Counted from the stretch's first letter, positions 33,113 through 50,178 are shown. The stretch: DNA of 64,000 nucleotides from an uncultured Pelagibacteraceae bacterium (GCA_902564025.1 CACEZK010000002.1:15227-79226), one strand, 5' to 3'. Program-made: numbers and translations. Notes: generated by a model from the sequence alone, not told the origin.

Positions 33113-34036
33113 ATGCAAAATGTCGTCTCAGTAAAGAATTTATCTAAAACTTACAGTAATCAATTTCAGGCACTAAATAATGTAAATATAGATATCAAAC
33201 AGAATGAAATATTTGCACTACTTGGACCAAATGGTGCAGGAAAAACAACTTTGATCAGTATAATTTGTGGAATAGTAACGCCAAGTATTGGGACAGTTGA
33301 GGTTGGTAACTACGATATTATTAAAGATTATAGAAAAACTAGATCACAAATTGGACTTGTCCCTCAAGAGTTAACTTTAGAACAATTTGAAATTGTTTAT
33401 AACAATGTATCCTACACGAGAGGCTTATACGGCAAACCTCCTAATCCTCAGCATATTGAAAAAATACTAAAAGATTTAAGTCTGTGGGATAAAAAAGATT
33501 CCAAAATCAATGAGCTTTCTGGTGGAATGAAAAGAAGAGTCTTGATTGCTAAGGCTCTTTCTCATGAACCTTCAGTCTTATTTCTTGATGAGCCAACAGC
33601 GGGGGTTGATGTCGAATTAAGAAAAGACATGTGGGAAGTTATTAAGAATTTAAAAAATAAAGGTGTTACAATAATTTTAACAACCCATTATATAGAAGAA
33701 GCAGAAGCAATAGCTGACCGGGTAGCAGTAATTAATAAAGGTGAGATGATAATAGTTGATGAGACTTCAAATTTAATAAAAAGTTTAGGCCAGAAAACTC
33801 TAACAATTGATTTACATGAAACAGTTAAGACATTACCTGAATCACTTAAAAATTATAAACTTACTATAGTTAATGAAGGTTTATCAATTGATTACCAATA
33901 CGATACACAAAGCAAACAAACTGGAATAACCTCTCTCTTGCAAGATATGAAGGAGGCTGGATTAAAATTAAAAGATTTAAATACTGAACAAAGTTCTCTT
34001 GAAAAGATCTTTGTAGAATTGGTGAAGGAAAAATAA
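33113..34036 (+). CDS. ABC-2-type transporter ATP-binding protein
   Basis: 307 aa. Walker A GPNGAGKTT, signature LSGGMKRRV, Walker B LFLDEPTAGVD. Confidence 0.9.
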   Translation: MQNVVSVKNLSKTYSNQFQALNNVNIDIKQNEIFALLGPNGAGKTTLISIICGIVTPSIGTVEVGNYDIIKDYRKTRSQIGLVPQELTLEQFEIVYNNVSYTRGLYGKPPNPQHIEKILKDLSLWDKKDSKINELSGGMKRRVLIAKALSHEPSVLFLDEPTAGVDVELRKDMWEVIKNLKNKGVTIILTTHYIEEAEAIADRVAVINKGEMIIVDETSNLIKSLGQKTLTIDLHETVKTLPESLKNYKLTIVNEGLSIDYQYDTQSKQTGITSLLQDMKEAGLKLKDLNTEQSSLEKIFVELVKEK

Positions 34037-34797
34037 TGAATTTATACGCAATCAGAGCAATTTATTTTCATGAAATGGATCGAATGAGAAGAACTCTTTT
34101 TCAAAGCGTGCTTTCGCCTGTGCTTTCGACTTCTTTATATTTCATTGTATTTGGTTCAGTTATTGGGGGTATGATTCCGCAAATTGAAGGAGTTAGTTAT
34201 GGATCATTCATTGTGCCTGGTTTATTAATGCTGACTTTGTTAACTCAAAGTATATCAAACTCTTCATTTGGAATATTTTTTCCAAAATTTACTGGATCGA
34301 TTTATGAGGTTCTTGCTGCACCCATTTCCTCTTTAGAAATTATCATTGGTTTTGTAGGTGCCAGTGCGACTAAATCACTTATTGTTGGCGTCATTATACT
34401 CATGACTGCAACTTTTTTTGTTGAACTAAAAATTCAATATCCCTTATTAATGCTTTTTCTTCTGGTATTAACATGTCTTACATTTAGTCTTTTTGGATTT
34501 CTAATTGGACTACTCAGTGAAAATTTTGAACAGTTGCAAGTTGTACCACTTATCATCGTCACTCCTTTAGTTTTTTTAGGCGGTAGTCTCTATACTGTAG
34601 AAATGCTTCCAGAATTTTGGCAAAATGTAACTTACTTTAATCCTGTTTTATATCTTGTGAATGGTATGAGATGGTCTTTTTACGGGGCATCCGATATTAA
34701 TATTTGGGTCAGTGTAATTTCTTTAGTTGCTTTCTTAAGCATTTGTGTTGCTGGCGTGGCAATTGCTATTACAAAAGGCTATGGTACTAAGGAGTAA
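34036..34797 (+). CDS. ABC-2-type transporter permease (YadH-like)
   Basis: 253 aa, 6 hydrophobic helices. ATG overlaps the ATPase stop (TAATG). Confidence 0.85.
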   Translation: MNLYAIRAIYFHEMDRMRRTLFQSVLSPVLSTSLYFIVFGSVIGGMIPQIEGVSYGSFIVPGLLMLTLLTQSISNSSFGIFFPKFTGSIYEVLAAPISSLEIIIGFVGASATKSLIVGVIILMTATFFVELKIQYPLLMLFLLVLTCLTFSLFGFLIGLLSENFEQLQVVPLIIVTPLVFLGGSLYTVEMLPEFWQNVTYFNPVLYLVNGMRWSFYGASDINIWVSVISLVAFLSICVAGVAIAITKGYGTKE

Positions 34798-34807
34798 TTT
34801 CTACTAA

Positions 34808-34881
34808 GCCCCTATCGCTTAATAGTAAAGCAGGTCATTGGTAATGATCAGCCGCTGGAGCGTAACCAGCTAGGGGCACCA
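34808..34881 (+). tRNA. tRNA-like cloverleaf, formally tRNA-Thr(GGT) with encoded ACCA but non-canonical D and T loops
   Basis: GCCCCTA TC GCTT AATAGTA AAGC A GGTCA TTGGTAA TGATC AGCC GCTGG AGCGTAA CCAGC TAGGGGC A CCA. All four stems pair (21 bp, one G-U). The T loop is AGCGTAA rather than TTCRANY, and the D loop lacks GG. Confidence 0.55.
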
Positions 34882-36990
34882 CTAAAAACCACTTTCTCTG
34901 ATTAATGTTGATGAAACCAAATTAAATAGATTTTGAAAAATATTATAGTTTTCAGTCTGAATTTTTACTTTACCTGCTGTTTGCCATTGAGCAGTCTCAA
35001 CTTCAGTACTTGTAGAAAAATTAAGCTGGTATAATGCTTCTTCTGGTCGATAAATAACTTTTCCATCTCCCTTAACTTCACGTGATGCAATTGATCCACC
35101 AAAAGTAGATACTAATGATAAGTAAGGAAGTTCTTCTGTCGATGTATTATTTTGTGAAACCAAAACAACTTCTGCTTCATCAAATTCATTATTTTTTGGA
35201 ACAAAATAACCACTTGTATTACCTTCAAGTTTGTCCAAATCATTTTCGCTTATAAATGCGACAACTTTTGCGTCATTGAATTGAACAATAGAAAATAATT
35301 TTTCTTTTATATTCACCCATTGGCCATTATTTAAATACTTAAGATCTTTTATCACCCCACTCATTGGTGCATAAATTGATAGATTTTCATTTTCCTCTTT
35401 AAGACTTTTAAGAATTTCAAATTCTACTTTTAATTGGTTTTCTAATATCATGAGGTTGTTCATATCAGCCTCTGATCCGATTCGACGATCCAGTTTTTGT
35501 TGTATCATCTTTACACGCTCAATTGCCTTATCAACTTTATTTGATAAGGACGGACTCATCATTGTAATTAATAAATCACCTTTTGCGACTTGTTGATCTG
35601 AGATAACAAAAATCTCTTTTATCTCAGAATCTTCTGTTGGATAGATATCGACCACTTCACCACGATCAATTACCGCTGGAAGACTGAGTGAACTTCGCCA
35701 TGGTACTAACATTGCTGCCAAAAATAATGAAAAAATAAAAATTGATCTCAATGAATACCAATTAAAGCGCATGTACCTTCTAAGTCCCCACCACTGTTTA
35801 ATTTCTCTCCAAATTGGAAGTAAAATGAACCAAACAATCTCAATAAGGAACAGAATTATGCCAAGAATTTTGAATGTTAGATAATAAACCAATAAGGCAA
35901 TTCCAATAAATATAAAGAAGCGATATATCCATGTCATCCATGCGTAAATGATAAAAGTCCACCGTCTTTGACTCATGAGTTGTTCGGGTGGTTGGAATTT
36001 AAATCCAAAGATCCATTCTCTAATCTGCCATCGACCTAAAGCAAAAGAGCGCGGTTGAAGATTTTCCGCTTTAAGAAAATCTGAGAGCACATAGTATCCG
36101 TCAAATCGCATAAACGGGCTAATATTAATAAGAAGTGATGATATCCAGCTTGAAGTTGCAATAAAAAATGAAGCACTTTTAATAACACCTTCAGGGCTAA
36201 CAGCCCAAACAAATGTAGCAAGAAGGGCAAGGTGCAATTCAGTCAGCATGCCAGCAAAATTAATTAGTAATCGTTTTCTATGGTCAGTTAATTTGTACGC
36301 ATCAGTAGTGTCAGTGTATAAAAATGGAAAAAAAACGAGCATTGCAAGTCCAATTGAAGAAACTTTGCATTTATAATATGTTGCAACATAAGCATGCCCA
36401 AGTTCGTGCAAGGCTTTAACAAAAACAATCGTTATACCAAACAAAATCAATCCATTAACATTAAAGAAATAGGAAAATGTTGTTAAAAATGTTTCATAAT
36501 TTTGGATTGTTAAAAAAATACCAATAATCCCGAAAATATAGATTATAAGTCTGCTGGTTTGCGATCCAAGAAACAATGCAAGAGGCAAACTGTTTTCAAG
36601 ACCATTTCCTGGTTTAAATAATGGGATTTTAAAGAACAAATAATTATGAATAATTTTTAACAGCCAATGCTTGTTAAGTTTCTCTTTTTGAACAACTAAA
36701 GATTTAACTTCATCGCCTGTTTTTTTAATAGTTAAATTATTGAGATTTAGAAAACTAATAAATTCTTCAATTTCTTCTTGTGTTATAGAAAGATTACTTT
36801 TTTTAATTTTTTCAATAAATTCTGTTGTCTCAATTCCACTTGACCAATTTTTAAGGAGATCAAATGCTTTTTTGTTAATCGAAAAGTATTTATTTCTTAA
36901 AGAGTCATAAAGAAGCCACGACGCTGAACCGTCCTCTTTCTTTGGTCCCTCACTGAGTTTTAAATCTTGTCGAATAGACGGTACTATCAT
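34882..36990 (-). CDS. Fusion protein: PqqD-like N-domain + polytopic M50 (site-2 protease family) metalloprotease + HlyD-like membrane-fusion domain
   Basis: 702 aa. aa ~20-90 WLLYDSLRNKYFSINKKAFDLLKNW...EEIEEFISFLNLNNL (PqqD/RRE-like pattern). HELGH at 36394-36408 within multiple TM helices. C-terminal half has a lipoyl-like VAKGDLLITM, a coiled coil and a beta-barrel typical of HlyD. Confidence 0.78.
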   Translation of the reverse strand: MIVPSIRQDLKLSEGPKKEDGSASWLLYDSLRNKYFSINKKAFDLLKNWSSGIETTEFIEKIKKSNLSITQEEIEEFISFLNLNNLTIKKTGDEVKSLVVQKEKLNKHWLLKIIHNYLFFKIPLFKPGNGLENSLPLALFLGSQTSRLIIYIFGIIGIFLTIQNYETFLTTFSYFFNVNGLILFGITIVFVKALHELGHAYVATYYKCKVSSIGLAMLVFFPFLYTDTTDAYKLTDHRKRLLINFAGMLTELHLALLATFVWAVSPEGVIKSASFFIATSSWISSLLINISPFMRFDGYYVLSDFLKAENLQPRSFALGRWQIREWIFGFKFQPPEQLMSQRRWTFIIYAWMTWIYRFFIFIGIALLVYYLTFKILGIILFLIEIVWFILLPIWREIKQWWGLRRYMRFNWYSLRSIFIFSLFLAAMLVPWRSSLSLPAVIDRGEVVDIYPTEDSEIKEIFVISDQQVAKGDLLITMMSPSLSNKVDKAIERVKMIQQKLDRRIGSEADMNNLMILENQLKVEFEILKSLKEENENLSIYAPMSGVIKDLKYLNNGQWVNIKEKLFSIVQFNDAKVVAFISENDLDKLEGNTSGYFVPKNNEFDEAEVVLVSQNNTSTEELPYLSLVSTFGGSIASREVKGDGKVIYRPEEALYQLNFSTSTEVETAQWQTAGKVKIQTENYNIFQNLFNLVSSTLIRESGF

Positions 36991-38328
36991 TTATATTCCC
37001 AAAAATTGTCTGCTGGTATTGATTGGAACTCTGAAGATATAATAAAAAAGAGATGTTCGATCTCCGTAAATTTTTGCTGAACCTCGCAATCCAATACGCG
37101 GTGGATCAATATTATCCTCAAGGCTAGCGTGTATTTTATAAGCTAAAATATTCTCTGCTGTTAACTCAGGCTTGTAAGAAGTTCTTAATATTTTACCTTC
37201 AATCGAGCTTAGTGGACTACTGTCTAAAAACACCTTAACTCTCGCTGATTTTTCAATAAAAAGTGAGTCTTTTGTTGGTAGGTAAATTAAGAACTCAATA
37301 TCGTCTGAATTTGCTATAGTTAGTATCTTTTCACCTATATTTACAGGACGGCCTTGCCAGTCAATAAAATCCTCAACAACAGCAACGCCTGAAACCTCAG
37401 CTTTGATAACTGAATATTTTAACTGTTCCTCAGCATAGGTGACTTGCTTTTTTTTCAACGCAACTTGAGTTGATAATTCAACTAGCTTTGCTTTTGCTTC
37501 ATCATTTGTGAATGAGGATTGCTTGGCTCTAAGTAATTCTGCCTCAGCAACTTCTAATTCTTGCAAGCTTATTTCGTATTGGGATTTAAAATTGAGATCA
37601 TCTAATTTTATAAGCTCCGTACCAATATCAACAACATCATTAGTATTTACTAATACTTTTTTTACTACACCATTCACTGGTGATGTAACAACTGACGGAT
37701 TTTTAGCGATAACCTCAACTGGAGCTACTGCGGATATATTAATTGGCATAAACATTGATAGCGCGATTGCTACTAATATTAGCCACTTTAGCCAACCTGA
37801 AAAAATTCTACCGATGAAAGATAAAATTGATCCCCTTGATAAAAATGAGTCCAATGCGTGGCTGAATGTTTCAGCAATGTGTTGCAGTAGTTCTTTTTCT
37901 GTATTTGAAACTTTAGTAGATCTTACAATAACAAGAGAACCCAAGTCGCCCTTTGTTCTTGAAATTAATGGAACAACCATTAATTCGTTTGGAAAATTTT
38001 CAGGTAAATCTAAATTTGAACTGTCCTCTTTTAAATCATTAATTGAAACTTCTGAAAAAACTCCAGTTTCAAATTTCTTTTTATTTATTAATCTTTCAAC
38101 AAAAGTAACTGTCGGCGCTGTTCTATCAACAACTGAAATATCTGAAATTGTTTGGACTTTCTGTCGACCCGTAGCAGATTTTGTAAGAAAAAATAAAAAA
38201 TTATAATCAACAACACTTCTTAACTCATTCGCACAAATAAATCCAAGTTCGGATAAGTTTTCTGCTGTCCGAAATTTTTTTTCAAGAGTAATTAATCTTG
38301 CTATTTTTATTGAAGTATTATCATTCAA
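36991..38328 (-). CDS. HlyD-family membrane-fusion protein with N-terminal cytoplasmic GAF-like domain
   Basis: 445 aa. ~170-aa soluble N-domain, one TM helix (WLKWLILVAIALSMFMPI), then SPVNGVVKKVLVNTNDVVDIGTELIKLD, a coiled coil and a beta-barrel. Apparent TTG start overlapping the upstream stop. Confidence 0.7.
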   Translation of the reverse strand: MNDNTSIKIARLITLEKKFRTAENLSELGFICANELRSVVDYNFLFFLTKSATGRQKVQTISDISVVDRTAPTVTFVERLINKKKFETGVFSEVSINDLKEDSSNLDLPENFPNELMVVPLISRTKGDLGSLVIVRSTKVSNTEKELLQHIAETFSHALDSFLSRGSILSFIGRIFSGWLKWLILVAIALSMFMPINISAVAPVEVIAKNPSVVTSPVNGVVKKVLVNTNDVVDIGTELIKLDDLNFKSQYEISLQELEVAEAELLRAKQSSFTNDEAKAKLVELSTQVALKKKQVTYAEEQLKYSVIKAEVSGVAVVEDFIDWQGRPVNIGEKILTIANSDDIEFLIYLPTKDSLFIEKSARVKVFLDSSPLSSIEGKILRTSYKPELTAENILAYKIHASLEDNIDPPRIGLRGSAKIYGDRTSLFYYIFRVPINTSRQFLGI

Positions 38329-39044
38329 AACGTTGCTGTCCCACTCATGCCTGGCAGTAATGTATCATAATTTTCGTCAAATTTTGCAGTAATGTCGATG
38401 GTTTGGCTTACAGGATCAATATCAACACCAATAGTATGAATTTTGGCGCTATATGTTTGACCATTTTCATCAATGCTGATTTTCATCGGAAAGCCCTCAT
38501 CAATCCAAGCCAACCATTTACTTGAAACAATCAATTTCGCCTCAAGAATGCCTGAACCAATAATTTCGACCAATGGCTGCTGTCTTTCAATGCTCTCAAA
38601 CTCATTGACAAACACTTTGGATACTTTGCCATCATAAGGGGCTTTAATTATACATCGATCTGTATTGAGTTTAGCAATCTGTAATTCAGCTTCTGCACGC
38701 TTTACATCGATTTCTGATAACTGAACCTCATATTCACCAATGGATCTCATCAAGGCAAGTTCTTGATTGCTCTTTAGAGTTACTCTTGCACTCTCTAATT
38801 GTGCTTCAACAACTTTTCGTTGTTCTTCAAAAAATGAACAATCAAACTTAATTAAAATATCAGACTCCTTAAATTCGGATCCTTCATCAATTGGAATTGA
38901 ATCAACTTTTGCAGCAAGTTCACTTGAGAGCGTTGCCTCTTCAGTTGCAATTACTAAAACACGTGTTGAATATTCTTCTGCTGACGTATTATAAGGCAGT
39001 AATATGCAGCAAGCCGCTACTGCAAATGTTACAATTTTGTTCAT
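38325..39044 (-). CDS. Short periplasmic membrane-fusion (HlyD/RND-adaptor-like) protein
   Basis: 239 aa. Signal peptide, lipoyl-like halves (KVDSIPIDEGSEFKESDILIKFD ... IKAPYDGKVSKVFVNEFE) flanking a hairpin coiled coil. Confidence 0.7.
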   Translation of the reverse strand: MNKIVTFAVAACCILLPYNTSAEEYSTRVLVIATEEATLSSELAAKVDSIPIDEGSEFKESDILIKFDCSFFEEQRKVVEAQLESARVTLKSNQELALMRSIGEYEVQLSEIDVKRAEAELQIAKLNTDRCIIKAPYDGKVSKVFVNEFESIERQQPLVEIIGSGILEAKLIVSSKWLAWIDEGFPMKISIDENGQTYSAKIHTIGVDIDPVSQTIDITAKFDENYDTLLPGMSGTATF

Positions 39045-39055
39045 AAACGTAATTA

Positions 39056-42000
39056 TTAACTTACAAGAGATACAATTTTTTCGCCATAGCTATCTGCTGC
39101 TTTAGCATGAAGCTTTAATTGCTCATCTAGTGGAATGAAGGAAATTTCATCGTCTGTTGCTGAGTTTTCTTCATCAGACTCACTTCCTGTTATTTCATTA
39201 AGATCAAGCTCAACTTCAATAATTCTTTCTTTTCCATCTTCATCCTCAGCAATAATTTTTAGTTCAAGAACTTGAAGGCTTTCAGTTAAGAATGCTGGAG
39301 CCGCTGAGCCTGTTCTTCCTTTTGAAGGGTCAGCCGCAATTTTTCCAGTTTCAGGATCAATTGTAATCCAATCAGGTAGTACGCCACCACCTTTGAGCTC
39401 TGCTTTGTATATTTTCACATTTGACTGATTATCGTCAATTACATCAAATGTAAATTGGCCTGCATCCATTTGAAGGCTGCTTAACTTCATTGTGCCTTCA
39501 AAATCTGTTTGAGCATTCAAATTATTATTTGCTGTATTACTTGATGCATTATTGTTCTCCCTGATCAAATTTACATTTGCATCATTATCAACAACTACTC
39601 TTGCCTGATCAACGGCTCCCCTTGCGAAGTCTTGGTCGCCTTTAATTTTAGCTTTATCCAATACAATATTAATATCTCTGGTATTACCATCCTTATCGAG
39701 AGCCACTAATTGAACCTCAACTGCGTCAATACCTTCTGGAATGTCTGCAGTTGTTTCTCCTGTTTCAGGGTTAACTTTAATCCATTCAGGCAAAACTTCA
39801 CCGTTAGAGAGCTGACCTGAATACAATTCAACATTTTTCTGATTATCATCATTTAGTTTAACTCCAACTTTTAAATCAGACTCTGTATCACCAGAAACTT
39901 CACTTGCAACAGCATCCATCAATCTCAACCCACCGTTAAACTTTAATGGTTTTGATAAAGACGCAGTATCTGCAATTGAAACTGTATCAAGTGTGAATCC
40001 ATCGTTACTGTCAATTGATGAACCCTGACTAATTGTTTCTTTTATAGCTGCTAGAAAGTCTTTCTTAGGTTTAACGATTACTGGATCAAGGTTTCCAAAA
40101 GTTTCTTCAGCTATTATCTCGCTATCATTCGAATAACCTGGTGCTGGATGAACAGTAATAGTAAAAGTATGGTCTGCAAATAGTCCTGCGCCATCTATCG
40201 CTCTTATAGTAATTGTATATGTACCGGGCTCACTGAGTCTTCCAGTTAACTTGTTATTTTTCAGTCTTAATCCATCTGGCAAACTTGTTTCAGCTTCTGT
40301 TTCTGGATCAACAATTTTATATTCTGTGATATCGAAAATACCTCTGTCAGGGTCATTAAAAATTTGTTTATGCTTAATATTTATTTGCTGACCTGTGAAT
40401 ACTGGAGGTAAATCAACAGGATAAACCACTTCAGGTGGATCATTTTTACCAGTTACAGTAATTGCAATCTCCGCTGCAACAGAGGAATCGTTATCTGTTG
40501 CGGTATAGGTAAAATATTCGGTAAATACGTCTCCAGGATTAAGTCGCTTGGCTTTGTTTGCTGTATAAGTATAACTTCCATCAGAATTTATGGTTAGATC
40601 ACCAAATATTCCTGAGAGGGGTTCACCTACCGTACCCACTTCACCTGTTTTATTCTCTCGGCCAGCTTTAATAGTATCAACAGTTAATGTATCTCCATCA
40701 GGGTCAGTATCATTTATCAATACACCTTGAGTTGCATCTTTTTCTGTTTGTGCACCTGCATCGATTTCTAATATGTCATCAACGGGTTCGGGTGGGTCAC
40801 TGATACCTTCAACTGTAATTGCAATTACTCCGGTGTCTGTTCTTGTTCCATCGGACACTGTATAGTTGAAATAATCAATGGCACTATCTCCTCGTTTAAG
40901 GACATTGGCAGCATCCTGGTCTGCTGCGTAGGTATAACTACCATCAGCATTTAAAGTTAAAGTACCATAAGTTCCTATCAGAGTAGTACCAACTTTACCG
41001 GCACCTCCTTTACCACCACCTTCAACTTGACCTGTTCGCACTTCAGAAATGGTTAGAGTCTCTCCGTCGGCATCCGTATCATCTGCATTAATTGCAAGCG
41101 TTGAGTCCTTAGCACGGGAGATTGATGCGTCCCGTTTAACAGTATCCGTGTCATCTACGGCCACTGGATTATTGTCATTGATGCCTGTAACGGTGAATGT
41201 AAGCTCAGCTGTTGAAGTTGCGGTGCCATCACTCACTGTGTATGTAAATGTATCAGTTCCTGTTTGGTTTGTTACCAATTGATCTGATTTATCTTGATCC
41301 GCAACGTAGGTATACGAACCATCTGCATTAACAGTAAGAGTTCCAAATTCACCCGTAAGTGCAACACCAACTGTACCATCAGTTCCAGTTCCATCCTTTG
41401 GACCAGTTCTGATATCAGTAATTGTAAAGTTTCCACTTGTGTCATCCCCATCAACATCTGTATCGTCGTGATCAAGTTCTTGGTCGTCACTGATTAATCT
41501 TGTAACCGTTGCATCCTCGTTAACGCTATCTGTATCATCAACAGCAACGATTGCATCGTTAGCTCCATTGATTGTAAATGTGAGCGTTGCAGTTGATGAA
41601 TTTTTGTCATCATCATCCTTTACAGTATAAGTAAATACTTCGGTAACACTGTCACCTGCATCCAATGCTTCTGCAGCGGCTGTGTTTGGTGTGTATGTGT
41701 AACTTCCATTAGCTGCAATAGTCAAAGTACCATACGTCCCTAAAACACCTTGACCAGCAGTGCCTGTATTACCGGTACCACCTGACGAAATATTTGTAAC
41801 GGCGAGACTTTCTCTATCTCCACCTGTATCGTTTGTTAATACACCACCTGCCTCATTAACTGTTAATGTCTGACTCTCAGTTGCTGTAGCTGTATCTGCT
41901 GAACCAACGGGTCCCTTACCGGTTACCGTAATGGTCAGAGTTGCAGTGGCAGTAGCGTTCTCATTATCTGTGACCGTGTAAGTAAATACGTCATTTGCCG

Positions 42001-45000
42001 TAGCGTTATGTGCCAGTGCATCAGCAGCGGCTTTGTCAGCAGTATACGAATAACTACCATCAGAATTAAGGGTCAGAGTACCATAAGTTCCATCTGTTGA
42101 TCCACCAACTGTGCCAGCTGATGCACCGGTAATTGCTGTCACCGTCATGCTTGAACCCGTGTCAACATCACTATCGTTTGAAAGTACTCCTGCTCCAGCA
42201 TTTTTTGTTGCTGTAGCATCTTCATCAACAGCATTCGTATCATTGCTTGCGCTTGGAGCATCATTCACTCCTAAAACAGTAATGGTTATTGTGGCAGTAT
42301 CTGTACCACCATTGCCATCACTGACTGTATAAGTAAAGACGTCAGTTGCTGTTGCATCTTTTGCTATCGAGTTTGCGTTGTTTGCATTGTAGGTGTAATT
42401 ACCGGTGCTTTGAATTGTTAACGTTCCGTAAGTTCCTGTCGCAGCGCCACCAACAGATCCTCCTGAAATAGCTGAAACTGTAAGTGTGTCTCCATCTACA
42501 TCTGTATCATTATTTAAAACGTCCCCTGTATTATCTCCACTTTCATTATTTTTATTACCATCGGTTCCTGAAACCCCGGTTGAGCCATCGCCAACTGTTA
42601 ATGTTTGATCTTCTGTTATGTATCCTGTTGCAGGATTACTATCTACTGCTGGGTCATCAGCTACAGGAGGAGTATTATTTGAACCGGTAATTGTAATTGT
42701 AAGTGTTGCAGTATCGGTATCATTTGGACTGCTTGTATGATCTCGAACTGTGTAAGTAAAGACATCAGTTGCTTGGACACCGTTGCCTAAACTCGTTGAA
42801 CCGTTTTGATCAGCTATATAAGTATAGGAACCATTTGCATTGACAGTTAATCTACCTTTTGATGTCGTAATTTCTTGACCGGGGTTATAATCATCAGAAC
42901 CATGTCTGATATTGGTAATAGTAAAGCTACCTGATGCATCATCGGCATCAGGGTCAGTATCGTCGTGATCGAGTTCTTGTGTATCACTTTCACTTCTAGT
43001 GATTGTAGATCCAGCGTTTACAGCATCAGTATCAGCAACCGCGGTAATATCATCATTAACACCAGTCACCGTAATAGTTAACGTTGCGATACTTGCATTT
43101 TTATCTGCATCATCTTTAACCGTGTAGGTGAATACATCATCAACTGTATCACCATGATCAAGGGCTTCGGCTGCTGCTTGGTTAGCAACATATTCATAGC
43201 TACCGTCAGCTGCCATAGTTAAAACACCGTAAGTACCAGTAACAGCCTGTGCAGCATTACCACTATTTCCAGTAGCGGCATGATTAATGCCAGTTACAGC
43301 TAAACTCTCAACATCAAAGCTTGCGTTATCATCATCGTTACTGATAACGCCAGATGCTTCGTTTACTGTTAGAGTGGCATTTTCATTGACCGCACCGGTG
43401 TCAGCAACCGCTTGTGGACCTACACCGGTTACTGTGATGACTAAATCCGCTGAACCAGTTGTTCCACCATTATTATCACTTACGGTATAAGTAAATGTAT
43501 CAGTTGCTGTGGCATCGGCAGCGAGTCCATCTTCACCTCTGCCATTTGCAACATATGTGTAACTACCATCTGAATTCAAAGTTAGAACACCGTATGTTCC
43601 ATTTAATGCTGCACCCACTGTTCCTCCATCAATGCCTGAAACTGTTAAGGTTGAACTAGCGTCTACGTCAGTATCGTTTACTAAAACACCACTTCCAGCA
43701 CTGACAGTAAGAGTTTTATCCTCGTTAATAGCCCCTGCATCATTACTGCCAGCTGGATCATCGTCAAGACCTGTTATCGTAATCGTAAGAGTTGCTGTAT
43801 CTGCATTAACCCCATTGTCATCTTTGACAGTGTAGGTAAAAATATCAGTAACGGAGTCATTTAAATCCAGAGCTTCGGCTGCTGCTGTATTAGCAACATA
43901 AGTGTAACTGCCATCAGCTGCGACGGTTAGCGTACCATATGTTCCGAGAACACCTTGAGTAGCGTTTCCACTGTTTCCAGTAGAATTTGAACTGATTTCA
44001 GTAACTGCAAGATTTTCTGTATCACCACCTGAATCATTACTGATTACACCTGCACCAGCATTTGCAGTTAAAGTTGCATTCTCATTGACACTACCAGTAT
44101 CATTGCTTGCACTTGGACCAACCCCTGTCACAGTTATTGCAAGTTCAGCCGTATCTGTATCGTTTGGACTACTTGCGTGATCTCTGACCGTATACGTAAA
44201 GTAATCTATTGCAGTGGCGCCTGCAGCAAGTGTATCTTCACTTCTATTATTTGCAACATATGTGTAACTACCGTTTGCATTAACAGTTAATACACCATAG
44301 GTACCATTTAAAGCTTGTCCAACTGTACCAACTGTTGCTCCACTGCTAGAAGATTCTCTTCCTGTTCTGATTGCCGTAATGGTAAAGCTACCAGACACAT
44401 CATCGCCGTCTGGATCGGTATCGTCATGATCAAGTTCTTGTGTGTCTGAAACACTTCGAGTAATAGTTGCATCTTCATTCACAGAGTCTGTATCGTTTAT
44501 AGCTGTTATTGGATCATTTAAACCTGCAATAGTAATAGTGATTGTTGCGGTAGCGTCATCAGTTTGATCAGTAACAGTGTAAGTAAAGGTATCAGTGTTC
44601 GTTTCACCAGGATCTAATCGGTCTGCAGCAGTTTTATTGGCTTCGTATACGTATCGACCAGATGAATAGAGTGTTAATGTACCATAAGTGCCATCAACTG
44701 GTGATCCAAGAGATCCTCCATTGATGGATTTAACAGTCAGTGTATCACCATCAGCATCAGTATCATTTAATAAAACATCACCGGTATGTTCACCTGATGT
44801 ATCAGGTGTGGCATCATTTGCGCTGGCATCATCAGCAACAGTCAATGTGGCGTCTTCGTTAATGTAACCGGCATCATTATTACCAACGGGGGGATTATTT
44901 GTTTCTGCAGCTCGTGTGACCACACGAATGAAGTCACCTTTTTCTCCGTTATCAGCTGAAAGGGTTATTCGTTTATTGGAATTAGAAACAGACCAACCAT

Positions 45001-46144
45001 CACTGTTCGATGTTAAACTTCCTGGTGCACCACCAGAGTATTCAAAATCCCTTTTACCGATTTTCTGGGCACTCATGGTAGGATAAGCGGAGCTTCCTAG
45101 GTCCGTATAACCTGACATGAAAATGGTATTATCGGGTATCGTGAAAACACCGATAATGTCATAAGTAAAGTCAACTATACCTCGTGCACTCGATCCTCGT
45201 CGATTGATTTCATCATTCAAATAGACCATGTAAACGTTTACCGGTCCATGTATATCTGGATCCCAACTGTTTGCAGTCACGCCAACATCAAAGTTTAGTG
45301 TGTCACCAGTACTCACATTCGCTTTTTCTTGTGTGATGATCCATCGCTTGCTGCTGTCCTGTTGTCCGTTCTTATTACCTGAGAAATTTCCACCACCTGC
45401 TTTTAAATTGGTCGCATTATGTTTTTCAACAGCATTTGAAATGGCAGTAACATCATTGCTCAGAGAATGATTATAATTGATAACACTCACATTTTGAGTT
45501 TCTACAATGCCAACATGCTTTTCAAGATCCCAATCTCCACCTTGACCTGTAATATCATCAGATGCTGCAATATCTGCTTGCATGATATCAGCAAGTTGTT
45601 TAATGAAGATTTCTCCATTTAGATCAGCTGCAACATTACAACCATAAAATAAAATGTCACCCTGCTCAGTTAGACTCAACCCAATAGTTTTTAAAGTGTC
45701 TCTGTAAGTATCAAGTGTATCATTGTTTAAGACAGCAGTTCCAAATGCTATTTGCCCAACACTACCGTGACCAATAATATGTAATGCATCAATATCAGAC
45801 TCGTTAGATAAAATATTTTCAATTTCAGCAAACCCGTCTTGTTCACTTTGTATGATATATACTTCAGTACTGTCATCAAAACTTTCAATTAAAACTTCGA
45901 TATCATCAACCGCACTGTCGATAAATACAAATTGTTTGGTTCTAGCATTCTGATTTGTACTTTCACGATTAACGAATGGAAGTTTTGTATCTTGATCGGT
46001 TTTAAAATTATTTTCTTTTGTTTTTTTGTCTAAGTCAGTCTTATCCAAGTTCACTAAATCATCTATCGTGTCAATTGCTGTTGCAACTGCAGCTCCATCG
46101 AGCATCATGCGCGGTTCGAGTGCCTGAATAAGTTTTTTAGTCAT
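39056..46144 (-). CDS. Giant (2362 aa) DUF4347-domain / VCBS (tandem-95-type) repeat surface protein with C-terminal cadherin-like modules
   Basis: N-terminus MTKKLIQALEPRMMLDGAAVATA. aa ~71-210 FIDSAV...ALHIIGHGS.G...GDILFYGCNVA...ADIAASDD.TG..GGDWDLE (DUF4347 signature). About 12 repeats with NEDATLTV...NDTD.DGD.LTV...GTYGTLT...DGSYTY...TD.FTYTV.D...TATLTITVTG.ND. C-terminal LP(D/E)W...PETG... modules. No Sec signal and no GGxGxD RTX repeats are visible. Confidence 0.9.
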   Translation of the reverse strand: MTKKLIQALEPRMMLDGAAVATAIDTIDDLVNLDKTDLDKKTKENNFKTDQDTKLPFVNRESTNQNARTKQFVFIDSAVDDIEVLIESFDDSTEVYIIQSEQDGFAEIENILSNESDIDALHIIGHGSVGQIAFGTAVLNNDTLDTYRDTLKTIGLSLTEQGDILFYGCNVAADLNGEIFIKQLADIMQADIAASDDITGQGGDWDLEKHVGIVETQNVSVINYNHSLSNDVTAISNAVEKHNATNLKAGGGNFSGNKNGQQDSSKRWIITQEKANVSTGDTLNFDVGVTANSWDPDIHGPVNVYMVYLNDEINRRGSSARGIVDFTYDIIGVFTIPDNTIFMSGYTDLGSSAYPTMSAQKIGKRDFEYSGGAPGSLTSNSDGWSVSNSNKRITLSADNGEKGDFIRVVTRAAETNNPPVGNNDAGYINEDATLTVADDASANDATPDTSGEHTGDVLLNDTDADGDTLTVKSINGGSLGSPVDGTYGTLTLYSSGRYVYEANKTAADRLDPGETNTDTFTYTVTDQTDDATATITITIAGLNDPITAINDTDSVNEDATITRSVSDTQELDHDDTDPDGDDVSGSFTITAIRTGRESSSSGATVGTVGQALNGTYGVLTVNANGSYTYVANNRSEDTLAAGATAIDYFTYTVRDHASSPNDTDTAELAITVTGVGPSASNDTGSVNENATLTANAGAGVISNDSGGDTENLAVTEISSNSTGNSGNATQGVLGTYGTLTVAADGSYTYVANTAAAEALDLNDSVTDIFTYTVKDDNGVNADTATLTITITGLDDDPAGSNDAGAINEDKTLTVSAGSGVLVNDTDVDASSTLTVSGIDGGTVGAALNGTYGVLTLNSDGSYTYVANGRGEDGLAADATATDTFTYTVSDNNGGTTGSADLVITVTGVGPQAVADTGAVNENATLTVNEASGVISNDDDNASFDVESLAVTGINHAATGNSGNAAQAVTGTYGVLTMAADGSYEYVANQAAAEALDHGDTVDDVFTYTVKDDADKNASIATLTITVTGVNDDITAVADTDAVNAGSTITRSESDTQELDHDDTDPDADDASGSFTITNIRHGSDDYNPGQEITTSKGRLTVNANGSYTYIADQNGSTSLGNGVQATDVFTYTVRDHTSSPNDTDTATLTITITGSNNTPPVADDPAVDSNPATGYITEDQTLTVGDGSTGVSGTDGNKNNESGDNTGDVLNNDTDVDGDTLTVSAISGGSVGGAATGTYGTLTIQSTGNYTYNANNANSIAKDATATDVFTYTVSDGNGGTDTATITITVLGVNDAPSASNDTNAVDEDATATKNAGAGVLSNDSDVDTGSSMTVTAITGASAGTVGGSTDGTYGTLTLNSDGSYSYTADKAAADALAHNATANDVFTYTVTDNENATATATLTITVTGKGPVGSADTATATESQTLTVNEAGGVLTNDTGGDRESLAVTNISSGGTGNTGTAGQGVLGTYGTLTIAANGSYTYTPNTAAAEALDAGDSVTEVFTYTVKDDDDKNSSTATLTFTINGANDAIVAVDDTDSVNEDATVTRLISDDQELDHDDTDVDGDDTSGNFTITDIRTGPKDGTGTDGTVGVALTGEFGTLTVNADGSYTYVADQDKSDQLVTNQTGTDTFTYTVSDGTATSTAELTFTVTGINDNNPVAVDDTDTVKRDASISRAKDSTLAINADDTDADGETLTISEVRTGQVEGGGKGGAGKVGTTLIGTYGTLTLNADGSYTYAADQDAANVLKRGDSAIDYFNYTVSDGTRTDTGVIAITVEGISDPPEPVDDILEIDAGAQTEKDATQGVLINDTDPDGDTLTVDTIKAGRENKTGEVGTVGEPLSGIFGDLTINSDGSYTYTANKAKRLNPGDVFTEYFTYTATDNDSSVAAEIAITVTGKNDPPEVVYPVDLPPVFTGQQINIKHKQIFNDPDRGIFDITEYKIVDPETEAETSLPDGLRLKNNKLTGRLSEPGTYTITIRAIDGAGLFADHTFTITVHPAPGYSNDSEIIAEETFGNLDPVIVKPKKDFLAAIKETISQGSSIDSNDGFTLDTVSIADTASLSKPLKFNGGLRLMDAVASEVSGDTESDLKVGVKLNDDNQKNVELYSGQLSNGEVLPEWIKVNPETGETTADIPEGIDAVEVQLVALDKDGNTRDINIVLDKAKIKGDQDFARGAVDQARVVVDNDANVNLIRENNNASSNTANNNLNAQTDFEGTMKLSSLQMDAGQFTFDVIDDNQSNVKIYKAELKGGGVLPDWITIDPETGKIAADPSKGRTGSAAPAFLTESLQVLELKIIAEDEDGKERIIEVELDLNEITGSESDEENSATDDEISFIPLDEQLKLHAKAADSYGEKIVSLVS
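40430..44896 (-). repeat. About 12 tandem ~100-135-aa VCBS/tandem-95-like coding repeats
   Basis: Repeat boundaries are marked by ITITIAGLND, LAITVTGVGP, LTITITGLDD, LVITVTGVGP, LTITVTGVND, LTITITGSNN, ITITVLGVND, LTITVTGKGP, LTFTINGAND, LTFTVTGIND, IAITVEGISD, IAITVTGKND. Confidence 0.85.
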
Positions 46145-46351: not shown

Positions 46352-49120
46352 ATGGTCAATCCAATAAAAAAATTATTTATAGTTTTCATATGTTTGGCGT
46401 TCGTTGCTTGTGCGCGATCTCCAAAAGTAATTGATTCAGAGTCATTAAGCATTTCAATTGCTGAAGAAATTGCCGAACTAGAAATTGATGCATCTTTAAA
46501 AAATATTGATTTGCATACTGCAATTGCAATTGCAGTTAGAAACAATCGCGACTTAAGGATAAGTGTGATGGAATCCGCATTGGCAAATAGACAGAGGGAT
46601 CTTCAGAAATTTGATATGCTTCCAGATATAGCACTTACTGCAGGTTATTCAGAATTTACAGAACTACAACCATCTACGAGTAAGAGTGTTCTGCTTGATA
46701 CCGGTTCTGCCCCACCACTTGATGGGACAGAGAGTTATACAATTTCAAGGGATAAAATTCAGGAAACCAGAGGAATCGAATTTACCTGGAATGCTCTTGA
46801 CTTTGGCCTGTCATACATAAGGGCTGGTCAACAAGCTGACAGATATTTAATTGCTAAAGAATTAGAAAGAAAAGCAGTTCAAAACATTACTCGAGATATC
46901 ATCAGATCATACTGGAAAGCTCAAGCATCAGAAAACCTTCTTAATAAGCTTAATCCCCTATTAAAAAGAGTTGATGATGCCCTCGCAGACTCACAATACA
47001 TAGAAGAATTGCTGATTTCAGCGCCAATGGACTCATTGCTATATCAAAAAGAATTGTTAGATGTTCAACGAACACTACAAACTCAACAACGAGCACTAAT
47101 TAATTCTAAAAACGAATTGGCTGCATTAATGGGATTGTTACCAAACCAAAAATTCACGCTAACTGATAATGAGTCATATTTAACAAATTTAAGTATGGAT
47201 ATTCAAACAATGGAGGAAATAGCACTTATTTCAAGACCTGAGTTGATGGAAAGCAGATATCAAAAAAGAATTTCAAGCAAGGATACACGCGCGGCTATGT
47301 TAGCCCTAATTCCAAGTTTAAAATTTAATGCGGCTTATGGTTACACGGATAATGACTACTTGATGAACCAAGATACTACTGAGTACGGAGCATCAATTGG
47401 AGGTAATTTATTTGATATTTTTTCTGTCGGTGCAACAAGAAAAGCTTCAAAAGCAAATCAAGAATTGATTGCAGAAAGACATTTAGCAATAGCTATGACA
47501 GTTCTTTCACAAGTTCATTTATCAAACATCAATTACGATTTAGCAATCGAGGAATATGATACTGCACAAAGATATTTGGACGTAGCACGAAGAATTAGTA
47601 AGCAAGTTCAGAATGCTCAAAAAGTATCAAGATTTGGTGAGCTTGAAGTGATCAGAGAAGAAGCAAGTCTATTAGTAGCAGAATTAAGGAAAGATTTAGC
47701 ATTTTCAGAAATGCAGCATAGTATTGGTCAGATTTACGCATCAATTGGTAAAGATATACTGCCTGAAAATCATCAAAACCTTTCAATTGAAGATCTAGGC
47801 AATAGCATTAAAGCCAATTTAGCTGAGTGGGGCGTAACTTATCAAGCTGCAGTCAATATTCCTTTAAATGATCAAAACCCGCAACTTATAGTCATTACAG
47901 ACCCTATAAATACAAAACAATCCAGCAACAAATTTAAGATATCTAAAAATACATTTAATATTACTGGTCCAGGTAAATTAAGATACTCGGTAACGCAACA
48001 AGACGGCAGTGATTTGCCTCGATGGCTTGCATTCCTAACGTCAGACTTATCGATAGTTGGTAACCCGCCAGAGGATGTATCAGGTATAAAACTAAAAATC
48101 TCTGTTGCTAATGCTCTGGTTTCTGCAGAGGACAAATTCATTTTGAAATTTGTTGATGAAGAAACATATCTTGCAAATGAAAGTCAGAAGGCAAGTGAAG
48201 AATTAGCGCAAATGAGCAAATTGAGCAACGAAAATAATGAAGGTTTACCCGTTGAGCAGGTGGAAGATACGATTGAGACAACAGCAATTGACGAAGCAAT
48301 GGAAGCTGAAGAAAATATACCTGAGCCAATGGAAACAGAATATGAGTTTAGTAATGTATCAGCTGAGGATTTAAATAATCTTTTAGATTCAGTTGATCAG
48401 CTACTTGAGGGGTCGCTTGACCAATTGAACAATGAACAGGCCGCACTAGAGTTTAATAATCAAGTTTTTGATGAAAGTGTTGATGCTAATACTACTAACG
48501 AAGCTGAAGAAAATAATATTTTGCCAACAAAAAAAATTATTCAAGAAAACGAACAGCTTATAGCTGACAATAAGGAACTGCTCTCTGAAGCAACTGAAGC
48601 AAAAGAAGAATTAGCTCGATTAATTGAAGAAAATAAACAAAAAGAATTAGAAGATATAAAGGCTCAAGAAGAGCTTGAAGAAAAGTTAGCTAAAGAGGCT
48701 GAAGAGGCGTTGGCAAACTTGAATGAACTTATGGATACAAGTATTGACGCTGAAACTAATTCATTCAGCGCTCAAGCGAGTGAAGCAACAGATTTATCTG
48801 ATAATAATATCTCAAATGGTTCATCAAATGCAGAGTATGCATATATTAAGATCGGATCGTATAAACGTGGAAACTCGGCGAATAGCCTAATGAATTACGT
48901 ATACGATTTAATGGGCTTTGATACCCGTTTCCTCAAATACGATATTAATGTAGAAAAATTTAACAAAAATGACTTCTCAGTAGTAATTGGCCCAGTTCCA
49001 ATGGTTGAGGCTAAATCGATGCTAGAAGAACTTGATACTCAATTAAGTTCAGAAAATACCTCAATTGTTGATGCTGAACTAACTTGTAATGAAGAAGTCA
49101 TTTTAATGTGCTCAATTTAA
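46352..49120 (+). CDS. TolC-like outer-membrane channel lipoprotein fused to a cadherin-like module, an acidic coiled-coil linker and a SPOR-like domain
   Basis: 922 aa. Lipobox LAFVAC. aa ~50-470 has two OEP-type repeats (LHTAIAIAVRNNRDLR..., ISRPELMESRYQ...). aa ~525-600 LRYSVTQQDGSDLPRWLAF...GNPPEDVSGIKLKISV. aa ~600-810 is E/D/N-rich. aa ~828-897 YAYIKIGSYKRGNSANSL...FSVVIGPVPMVEAKSMLEEL (SPOR-like pattern). Confidence 0.78.
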   Translation: MVNPIKKLFIVFICLAFVACARSPKVIDSESLSISIAEEIAELEIDASLKNIDLHTAIAIAVRNNRDLRISVMESALANRQRDLQKFDMLPDIALTAGYSEFTELQPSTSKSVLLDTGSAPPLDGTESYTISRDKIQETRGIEFTWNALDFGLSYIRAGQQADRYLIAKELERKAVQNITRDIIRSYWKAQASENLLNKLNPLLKRVDDALADSQYIEELLISAPMDSLLYQKELLDVQRTLQTQQRALINSKNELAALMGLLPNQKFTLTDNESYLTNLSMDIQTMEEIALISRPELMESRYQKRISSKDTRAAMLALIPSLKFNAAYGYTDNDYLMNQDTTEYGASIGGNLFDIFSVGATRKASKANQELIAERHLAIAMTVLSQVHLSNINYDLAIEEYDTAQRYLDVARRISKQVQNAQKVSRFGELEVIREEASLLVAELRKDLAFSEMQHSIGQIYASIGKDILPENHQNLSIEDLGNSIKANLAEWGVTYQAAVNIPLNDQNPQLIVITDPINTKQSSNKFKISKNTFNITGPGKLRYSVTQQDGSDLPRWLAFLTSDLSIVGNPPEDVSGIKLKISVANALVSAEDKFILKFVDEETYLANESQKASEELAQMSKLSNENNEGLPVEQVEDTIETTAIDEAMEAEENIPEPMETEYEFSNVSAEDLNNLLDSVDQLLEGSLDQLNNEQAALEFNNQVFDESVDANTTNEAEENNILPTKKIIQENEQLIADNKELLSEATEAKEELARLIEENKQKELEDIKAQEELEEKLAKEAEEALANLNELMDTSIDAETNSFSAQASEATDLSDNNISNGSSNAEYAYIKIGSYKRGNSANSLMNYVYDLMGFDTRFLKYDINVEKFNKNDFSVVIGPVPMVEAKSMLEELDTQLSSENTSIVDAELTCNEEVILMCSI

Positions 49121-50178
49121 TTCGTTAAATCTTCATAAATATTGAAATAAAAATTCATCATTTCAGTAAAAGTCAACTCTTTGTATTTCAAAAATACATC
49201 CACTTCTCCATTGAGTTTTGGGTAGTTAACACGATAAATACTTCTGCCTTTTTTCTCTAAATGTTTCAATTCAATTAATTTCTTACTAGACCGTCTAACG
49301 GTTTCACGCGGCATTTTTGCTGCCTCAGAAATTGAGGATAGATTTGTTGGAAGAAGATGTCCACTCTCGTATAGATCTTCTATGGAATTATATTTTAATA
49401 TACCGTGTCTGTTTTTAAAATACACAGCGGCTGAGAGTATTATGCGATCTGCTGGTAAAAGTGATTTATCGCTTCCTTCTAAAGTAAGAATTCTTACCCA
49501 GAAGTGGTATAAATGTAATCGTACTCTGTTCCATTTAGGCTGAGATAATTTTTTTGTATTGATTGAAGTTAGAGGCTTTAAATTGAAATTGATTTTAAAA
49601 TAATCTTCTAAATTTAATATGAAATCATTTAATGAGCGCATGACTGATTTATAGATATTACTTAATGAATTGGTAAATATATACGCCTGATAGGCGTCAA
49701 AATTTACAAGATATCCATATTTTGGGTCTTTAGTTATTAAATCACTTTCTAAAACTGAATTTAAGTATCTTCTCATACTTTCTTTTGGAATATTGAAATG
49801 AGTTGAAAGTGAAATAATGGTAATTTTTTTGCCAATGAATTTACTAAACGATGACTGATAAATTGAGTCATTAAGAAAATCCTCTGGATGCATTGCTAAT
49901 ATTTCATTTCTATGTTCTTTGAATAAATTTTCATCATGATATGCGTTTGTAAATGAAAAAAGTATTACAAAAGATAAAATGGCAATTACTTCATCTTGCA
50001 GCCTTTGATCTTTTGTAATCCAACCTGTTGGGCTATCTTCCCAATCTGACGGTTCGTGAATAAATAGATTTTGATGACGAGAAAGTTGAATTAACAATAA
50101 TAGAGCGAGTTGGTCATTGTCCAACTTTAAAGTGTGCTCAATTACAGAGTCTTTAATTTTTTTTAAATTAGAATCCAT
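49117..50178 (-). CDS. Hypothetical protein with two winged-helix-like DNA-binding segments
   Basis: 353 aa. FNIPKESMRRYLNSVLESDLITKDPKYGYLVN and ISEAAKMPRETVRRSSKKLIELKHLEKKGRSIYRVN resemble wHTH modules. No family recognised. Confidence 0.45.
   Translation of the reverse strand: MDSNLKKIKDSVIEHTLKLDNDQLALLLLIQLSRHQNLFIHEPSDWEDSPTGWITKDQRLQDEVIAILSFVILFSFTNAYHDENLFKEHRNEILAMHPEDFLNDSIYQSSFSKFIGKKITIISLSTHFNIPKESMRRYLNSVLESDLITKDPKYGYLVNFDAYQAYIFTNSLSNIYKSVMRSLNDFILNLEDYFKINFNLKPLTSINTKKLSQPKWNRVRLHLYHFWVRILTLEGSDKSLLPADRIILSAAVYFKNRHGILKYNSIEDLYESGHLLPTNLSSISEAAKMPRETVRRSSKKLIELKHLEKKGRSIYRVNYPKLNGEVDVFLKYKELTFTEMMNFYFNIYEDLTN

Follow-up and report, generated by a model that had tools for sequence, protein, structure and literature searches.

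A short peptide at the N-terminus of giant bacterial repeat proteins, the LEPR-XLL tag, is tightly linked in the genome to a cassette of envelope proteins, one of which joins a predicted peptide-binding domain to an intramembrane protease. The case described here lies in a stretch of 64,000 nucleotides from an uncultured Pelagibacteraceae bacterium (GCA_902564025.1 CACEZK010000002.1:15227-79226), called the window throughout and numbered from its first letter, in which the tag opens a protein of 2362 amino acids (aa). The reading preferred here, at a probability of roughly 0.55, is that the tag is an address label read by the cassette. It would mark giant, adhesin-like repeat proteins as clients of this dedicated, envelope-spanning machinery encoded alongside them. 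In public annotation, LEPR-XLL labels thousands of giant bacterial proteins without a function; here, it is tied to a specific and widespread four-gene cassette.

The LEPR-XLL tag and the giant protein

The giant protein is encoded on the minus strand (39056-46144), and translation of this open reading frame (ORF) gives the N-terminus MTKKLIQALEPRMMLDGAAVAT, also given as MTKKLIQALEPRMMLDGAAVATAIDT. Residues 6-25 (IQALEPRMMLDGAAVATAID; 46070-46129, minus strand) match the NCBIfam model NF012209 (LEPR-8K; product "LEPR-XLL domain-containing protein"). They contain the interval singled out by an earlier, sequence-only reading of this DNA, 46079-46123, which corresponds to A8-T22 (ALEPRMMLDGAAVAT). 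The isolated N-terminus scores 20.0, 21.5 and 22.6 bits against a curated cut-off of 17 bits, and the model is not listed when the whole 2362-aa protein is scanned at E ≤0.01. The match covers aa 6-25 of the 2362, at the very start of a long protein with 12 cadherin-like repeats. Pfam holds nothing for the tag, and among 38 cassette-linked N-termini (described below), NF012209 matches 23 and no other family matches any. Judged by this profile match, the motif is an instance of an already curated tag family.

The tag, as read from its alignment, is made up of a basic stretch, L-E-x-R, two hydrophobic residues, [F/L]-D-[G/A]-A and a short Ala/Thr-rich segment. Across 38 tags from many clades, the Glu and Arg are invariant, and the Leu, the Asp and the Ala next to it reach 90% conservation or more. 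This agrees with the sequence-only reading, which had described such N-termini as recurrent on giant DUF4347-containing proteins of unrelated bacteria. That reading had also named conservation among homologues as a check, and DUF4347 homologues with as little as 34% identity retain the tag. A motif model derived from related loci found 41 matches at or above 24.7 bits among 6020 ORFs, the next best scoring 4.9 bits, and all 41 lie in the first ~100 residues of giant ORFs adjoining the cassette. One further locus (L042) carries a variant tag, MEPRYLLSGD.

Automatic gene calls often begin at a Met inside the tag (MLDGA…, MLDGAGAS…, MFDGA…, MFDGAA…), and several database homologues are called from such an internal Met (P0019, P0022, P0027-P0041, P0050, P0052 and others). 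The LE-x-R core is therefore missing from many database entries, a point of practical use in annotation, where internal-Met gene starts cut off the tag. Homologue searches with short queries returned proteins of similar length, mostly fragments, and full-length architectures were consequently taken from the loci. In the searchable, non-subscription literature, LEPR-XLL receives passing mentions only, its function being nowhere addressed; the same literature is silent on function for DUF4347, M50 plus HlyD, PqqD plus M50, the giant proteins of SAR11 and daptides.

The sequence-only reading had described the protein as starting without a Sec- or Tat-type leader, and composition supports this. 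Kyte-Doolittle means over 19 residues peak at 1.06 within the first 60 aa, compared with 1.65-2.8 for real signal or membrane segments of neighbouring proteins; the longest apolar run is eight residues and follows an Asp, and the N-terminus has no twin-arginine (Tat) motif. A Sec or Tat leader was rejected on these grounds. Behind the tag lie a charged, low-complexity linker (aa 26-72; 45929-46069, minus strand), whose sequence and length differ among homologues, and a DUF4347 domain (aa 73-218; 45491-45928, minus strand; Pfam, 163.8 bits), in the order that reading had given. The remainder consists of ~12 cadherin-like/VCBS repeats, a He_PIG-like C-terminal region with 'LPDWITIDPETGKI' units near its end, and a tail motif. 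Pfam matches comprise Cadherin_4 (12 copies), Big_9 and DUF4347, and NCBIfam matches comprise VCBS and a BapA/LapF-type adhesin domain. The repeats-in-toxin (RTX) signature GGxGxD had been reported as not visible, and a search for GG.G.D across all 2362 aa returned nothing; the C-terminus quoted in the same reading likewise matches the translation.

The giant gene is among the largest in the streamlined genomes of SAR11, which gives the system ecological relevance; SAR11 bacteria are among the most abundant in the sea. The window itself derives from a SAR11-type bacterium. In a Pelagibacteraceae single-cell genome (L009), the homologue of the window's 702-aa protease fusion, described below, is 97% identical to it. 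Contigs of Candidatus Pelagibacter keep the same gene order, in which a giant gene (4662-9101 aa) is followed by adaptors of 237 and then 444 aa and by an M50 fusion of 700 aa.

A cassette encoded beside the tagged protein

The giant gene heads a tightly packed operon on the minus strand. After an 11-nucleotide gap comes a small periplasmic adaptor of 239 aa (38325-39044), with a hydrophobic N-terminus and a lipoprotein-type signal (…FAVAAC), that matches TIGR01730 (104 bits) and HlyD_3. It overlaps by 4 nucleotides a second adaptor of 445 aa (36991-38328; HlyD_3 and HlyD_D23), which is laid out as a ~170-aa cytoplasmic N-domain, a membrane segment near aa 172-201 and a HlyD-type domain. A 0-nucleotide gap separates this adaptor from the third gene, whose 702-aa product (34882-36990) is a fusion of a predicted RiPP recognition element (RRE; RiPP, ribosomally synthesized and post-translationally modified peptide), an M50 metalloprotease (Peptidase_M50, 38.9 bits, cut-off 27.2) and a HlyD-type domain (HlyD_D23). 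On the opposite strand and divergent from the giant gene, a TolC-like outer-membrane protein of 922 aa (46352-49120, plus strand; OEP 111.5 bits, He_PIG 26 bits) bears a lipoprotein-type signal and is extended at its C-terminus by a long segment containing a He_PIG Ig domain (aa 512-596). The extension also has a very acidic, coiled-coil-like stretch, and at 922 aa the window's protein compares with roughly 500-560 aa in most related loci. The cassette proteins match only generic NCBIfam families. By ORF list and family scans, the operon has no small ORF and no modification enzymes, and the giant protein is its sole candidate substrate.

The wider distribution of this arrangement was assessed in 80 loci of GTDB species representatives, retrieved with an alignment of the M50-HlyD fusion. 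These loci span Pelagibacteraceae, Colwellia, Nitrospira, Hyphomicrobium, Pseudomonas, Halomonas, Marinomonas, Methylobacterium, Scalindua, Desulfobacterota, Zetaproteobacteria and Sulfurimonas. They share a common cassette in which the fusion is preceded by a ~260-aa and a ~460-aa adaptor, homologues of the two in the window, and usually by a TolC-like protein as well. The small adaptor is conserved in 65 of the 80 loci and the 445-aa adaptor in 77; TolC-like homologues adjoin the cassette in 46 of the 61 loci that have at least 5 kb of upstream flank. The fusion family itself has at least 2440 cluster representatives at E <1e-30, and among the 150 matches listed most are ~700 aa long.

A tagged giant ORF stands beside the cassette in 38 loci. 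The giant ORF runs off the edge of the locus in 22 others, the flanks are too short in 16, and four have full flanks and no visible tag. The tag is thus visible in 38 of the 42 loci in which the N-terminus of the giant protein can be seen, which answers favourably the question, posed by the sequence-only reading, of whether the motif co-occurs with M50-HlyD fusions. Sampling from the tag side gave six loci with usable flanks. The cassette lies upstream in one, and a likely outer-membrane component adjoins the tagged gene in two more (for L097, an OEP gene; for L101, a protein of 812 aa whose sole match, to He_PIG, is faint). None of the six is a clear counter-example, the informative side being out of reach in three. 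In one Nitrospira locus (L044, 13316-20498), two separate tagged ORFs follow one cassette, which suggests that one cassette can serve several clients.

It is the tag, rather than DUF4347, that tracks the cassette, since each occurs without the other. Tagged proteins without DUF4347 stand beside the cassette in Halomonas (L050) and Marinomonas (L077). Conversely, untagged DUF4347 proteins for which no cassette was seen come from Phaeobacter plasmids, Acaryochloris, Dolichospermum and Pseudomonas aeruginosa (PA0256). The Phaeobacter plasmids account for 40 records with DUF4347, and Phaeobacter is absent from the plasmid matches to the fusion. The Acaryochloris protein has a hydrophobic N-terminal leader and adjoins an inverse-autotransporter gene, and the untagged Dolichospermum protein is ~8500 aa long. 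PA0256 is an Hcp-loaded cargo of the type VI secretion system (PMC8262886; PDB 9qpe, PMC13323088), and this cargo is the sole solved DUF4347 structure (PDB 9qpe, PMC13323088). The possibility that the tag is simply part of DUF4347 was rejected because the two dissociate.

Tag and cassette also form a mobile, self-contained module on Escherichia coli plasmids. On IncF plasmids (IncFIA/FIB), an island flanked by insertion sequences holds only five genes, encoding a tagged 4459-aa protein (N-terminus MTTIKNRRLRPRAHRFALESRQLFDGAALAE), a TolC-family protein, two adaptors and the M50 fusion (L091, NZ_CP081687.1; 19803-39554 of the locus). Of 5426 complete E. coli genomes, 24 carry the fusion gene at ≥99% identity, in most cases on a plasmid, and the island also occurs on plasmids of Citrobacter, Kosakonia and Hafnia. 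An Azospirillum plasmid carries the same gene set, its tagged gene spanning the origin of the record. The presence of the module on E. coli IncF plasmid islands makes it experimentally tractable.

The predicted reader and protease

The first 90 residues of the fusion (36721-36990, minus strand) are confidently predicted to adopt the PqqD-like fold of an RRE. An AlphaFold2 model of residues 1-112, made with a 33-sequence alignment, has a pLDDT (predicted local distance difference test) score of 87.8 and consists of three strands (11-14, 25-29 and 34-38) followed by three helices (40-47, 55-64 and 71-83). When this model was compared with the PDB by Foldseek, the best nine matches were all RREs (probability 0.91-1.0, identity 13-15%). 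Six are lasso-peptide B1 proteins solved with their leaders (TbiB1, 5v1u/5v1v; lasso B1, 6jx3), and three belong to an RRE-bearing sactipeptide thioether-forming enzyme (5why/5wgg). The sequence-only reading had proposed a PqqD-like domain fused to a protease, and both the model and its structural matches point the same way. The best-conserved residues of the domain are R7, W25, D29, W49, F80, L86 and the YF of strand 3. Several of these appear, in the model, to sit in strands 2 and 3 and helix 3, where RREs hold their leaders, and R7 and D29 could possibly pair with the invariant Glu and Arg of the tag.

The M50 domain that follows has, by residue conservation, intact catalytic motifs. Its HExxH zinc site (H195-H199; 36394-36408, minus strand) was identified by invariance in homologues: H195, E196, H199, N289, P292, D297 and G298 (HExxH and NxxPxxxxDG) are invariant in 33 diverse sequences. 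A model of daptide-type intramembrane proteases matches aa 23-391 of the fusion at 111 bits, below its cut-off of 300, a match that relates the protease of the fusion to those acting on RiPP leaders. The fusion also ends in a segment (…LIRESGF, 34885-34905) that is strongly conserved from phylum to phylum; its R698 and E699 are the same in all 33 sequences compared. Such strong conservation is unusual for the end of a HlyD-type domain.

Proposed function of the tag

Four proteins would make up the proposed machinery: the TolC-like channel, the lipoprotein adaptor, the adaptor that carries a cytoplasmic N-domain, and the RRE-M50-HlyD fusion. In the fusion, the RRE would face the cytoplasm, the M50 domain would act as a zinc protease within the membrane, and the HlyD-type domain would serve as an adaptor in the periplasm. 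First, the RRE would bind the tag as an added β-strand, much as RREs bind RiPP leader peptides. Binding would then bring the start of the giant protein to the M50 active site, and the protease would cut within the tag or just past it. Precedents for such a cut are SpoIVFB, which acts on pro-σK, and, among RiPP leader proteases, YydH and the M50 enzyme of daptides. Finally, the three adaptor-type proteins and the TolC-like channel would carry the protein across the envelope or hold it there. Binding of the tag by the RRE, cleavage and its position, the direction of export and its energy source are inferred, unlike the conservation and linkage of the tag, the predicted fold and the motifs of the fusion and the absence of an ABC exporter, which were computed. 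Comparative evidence gives good support to the proposed relationship of tag, reader and protease.

A broader and more tentative claim, held to be distinctly less probable than the address-label role itself, is that the TolC-like protein, the two adaptors and the RRE-M50-HlyD fusion constitute an undescribed pathway for the export or surface display of giant proteins. In such a pathway, a LEPR leader would be read by an RRE and removed by an M50 protease with no dedicated ATP-binding cassette (ABC) transporter, in several phyla, from SAR11 to plasmid islands of E. coli and Citrobacter. If confirmed, this would explain how giant surface proteins are handled without signal peptides or RTX/ABC systems.

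Several observations weigh against the address-label reading. No energy-coupling component was found, and export of a protein of 2000-9000 aa by the cassette alone is unexplained. Family scans detected no ABC exporter in the window's operon, and no fused exporter-type ABC gene lies within 10 kb in any of the 80 loci; ABC-ATPase-like ORFs of any kind occur within that distance in eight, all of them stand-alone subunits of 236-401 aa. Support for the RRE fold comes from the model and Foldseek because Pfam PqqD matches only two of 33 fusion members (best E 0.01) and the RRE alignment, searched as a profile against PDB sequences, gave no meaningful match; the Foldseek E-values are themselves modest (6.5e-3 to 0.09). 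Linkage was sampled mainly from the protease side, at the level of loci. The four full-flank loci without a visible tag also count here, three of them still carrying fragmented or truncated repeat ORFs. Lastly, the cytoplasmic domain of the 445-aa adaptor, not the RRE, could read the tag, and on analysis of the C-termini the true export signal could lie in the shared tail, as it does in type 1 secretion.

Alternative explanations

The last two points underlie the most probable alternative, which has perhaps one chance in five: that another part of the cassette, such as the ~170-aa N-domain of the 445-aa adaptor, reads the tag and that the RRE-M50 protein acts on the C-terminal tail or on another peptide. 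The adaptor is present in nearly every locus, and its conserved cytoplasmic N-domain (aa 1-170), which has no Pfam or NCBIfam match, is a candidate second substrate-recognition module. In haemolysin secretion, the cytoplasmic tail of HlyD takes part in substrate recognition.

The tail, for its part, is a second conserved element, located at the extreme C-terminus of the giant proteins. In the window, it forms the last 28 aa (SFIPLDEQLKLHAKAADSYGEKIVSLVS; 39059-39142, minus strand; tail model) and follows the pattern F-x-x-L-x-x-Q-L, 9-10 residues, [D/N]-Y-G-x-x-L. The tail model scores 15-47 bits at the extreme C-terminus of giant ORFs against a background of at most 7 bits. The motif occurs in SAR11, Colwellia, Marinobacterium, Marinomonas and Sulfurimonas (the window; L016, L042, L060, L039, L001-L015), and other clades have a looser form, S-L-x-Q-Q-L. 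From its sequence and position, it may be a C-terminal export or docking signal. However, strict conservation of the tail is confined to one subgroup of loci, whereas the tag is found nearly throughout and is the most strongly conserved short peptide of the system, and RREs are dedicated peptide-binding domains. Moreover, a separate small precursor gene that might supply another peptide has no room in the operon, given its tight packing.

Somewhat less probable is that the tag is an uncleaved docking or retention element that tethers the giant protein to the inner-membrane complex, a cut by the M50 protease serving as regulated release. This logic resembles that of LapA-type adhesins, which are held via their N-terminus; the folded DUF4347 domain that follows the tag could act as a plug, and the conserved C-terminal tail could act as the export signal. 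Nevertheless, DUF4347 is dispensable in some tagged proteins, and no regulator of the protease is evident in the cassette.

It is unlikely that the tag is a pro-peptide of DUF4347, with DUF4347 a self-cleaving cysteine protease domain related to Peptidase_C80, and that the link to the cassette is incidental to DUF4347. Peptidase C80 is the self-cleaving domain of MARTX and TcdB. In the DUF4347 alignment, a Cys (in YGC) is invariant and a His-Gly ~43 residues upstream is ~90% conserved, and Peptidase_C80 matches six of 20 DUF4347 domains (best E 1.6e-4). On this sequence resemblance, DUF4347 may be a clan-CD-like protease domain. All of the C80 matches nonetheless fall under the model cut-off (16.3 bits for the window's domain, against 23.8), neither His is invariant, as Nitrospira has AEG or GEG in place of SHG, and tag and DUF4347 part company in both directions, as described above.

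The weakest alternative treats the protein as a LapA-like adhesin, secreted by a type 1 system and cut in LapG fashion at the GAAV di-alanine. It is very improbable even though the window reads D-G-A-A-V and the protein matches a BapA/LapF-type adhesin model: homologues do not keep the di-alanine, the site is found at residue ~18 rather than behind a folded retention module of ~100 aa, and the system has no ABC exporter, no RTX repeats and, among the 15 proteins scanned in and around the operon, no LapG/LapD-type protein. The resemblance to a LapG site noted in the sequence-only reading does not hold up across clades, as the residue after D-[GA]-A varies among A, G, V, L and S; the Pelagibacter clade reads DGAGAS at this place, Pseudomonas DGAVAA or DASVGV, and another clade DAASTA.

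Comparison with known systems

The likeness to NF012209 as a family is that of a short N-terminal motif on very large repetitive proteins; NF012209 is a naming model only, and the link to the cassette appears in no model seen. RiPP systems, including the lasso-peptide B1-B2 pair, YydH and the daptide M50 enzyme, share with the window a conserved N-terminal peptide, a PqqD-like domain and a protease. They differ in having a short precursor and modifying enzymes, whereas the window has a 2362-aa repeat protein (elsewhere up to ~9000 aa) and no modifying enzymes, and its reader and protease are fused to a HlyD-type adaptor and encoded with two further adaptors and a TolC-like channel.

Type 1 secreted adhesins (LapA with LapBCE and LapG/LapD, BapA and SiiE) resemble the window's system in another respect, pairing a giant cadherin/VCBS-repeat protein with HlyD-type adaptors and a TolC-like protein; the conserved C-terminal tail may be a further likeness. 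Unlike type 1 secretion, the window's system has no ABC transporter, no RTX repeats and no conserved LapG site, and of its three adaptor-type proteins one is fused to an M50 protease. The peptidase-containing ABC transporters, such as CvaAB-TolC for colicin V, have a built-in protease domain that takes off the N-terminal leader, and they too work with a HlyD-type adaptor and TolC. CvaAB-TolC uses a C39 cysteine protease, an ABC domain and a Gly-Gly site, whereas the window has an M50 protease and an RRE, no ABC domain and a tag without Gly-Gly. SpoIVFB, itself an M50 protease, removes a short N-terminal pro-sequence from pro-σK, which is made in the cytoplasm. It serves sporulation-specific signalling and lacks an RRE, a HlyD domain and an outer-membrane partner, all three of which go with the window's fusion.

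In its logic, the system comes closest to the leader, RRE and protease systems of RiPPs fused to type 1-like TolC/HlyD machinery. It belongs to neither class, since it lacks the short precursor and modifying enzymes of the one and the ABC transporter and RTX repeats of the other. Such a joining of RiPP-style leader recognition to TolC/HlyD envelope machinery looks unusual.

Neighbouring genes

Directly downstream of the TolC-like gene, on the opposite strand, lies an ORF of 353 aa (49117-50178, minus strand) with no Pfam match. At the other end of the cassette, a tRNA gene (34808-34878, plus strand) stands 4 nucleotides past the end of the M50-fusion gene, on the opposite strand, and before it an ABC-2 ATPase/permease pair (33113-34797, plus strand) converges on the operon. 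This pair was considered as an energizer of the cassette and rejected, because it is convergent, is separated from the operon by the tRNA gene and is not conserved in Pelagibacter loci. In those loci, photolyase and nitrogen-metabolism genes take the place of the window's tRNA and ABC-2 neighbours.

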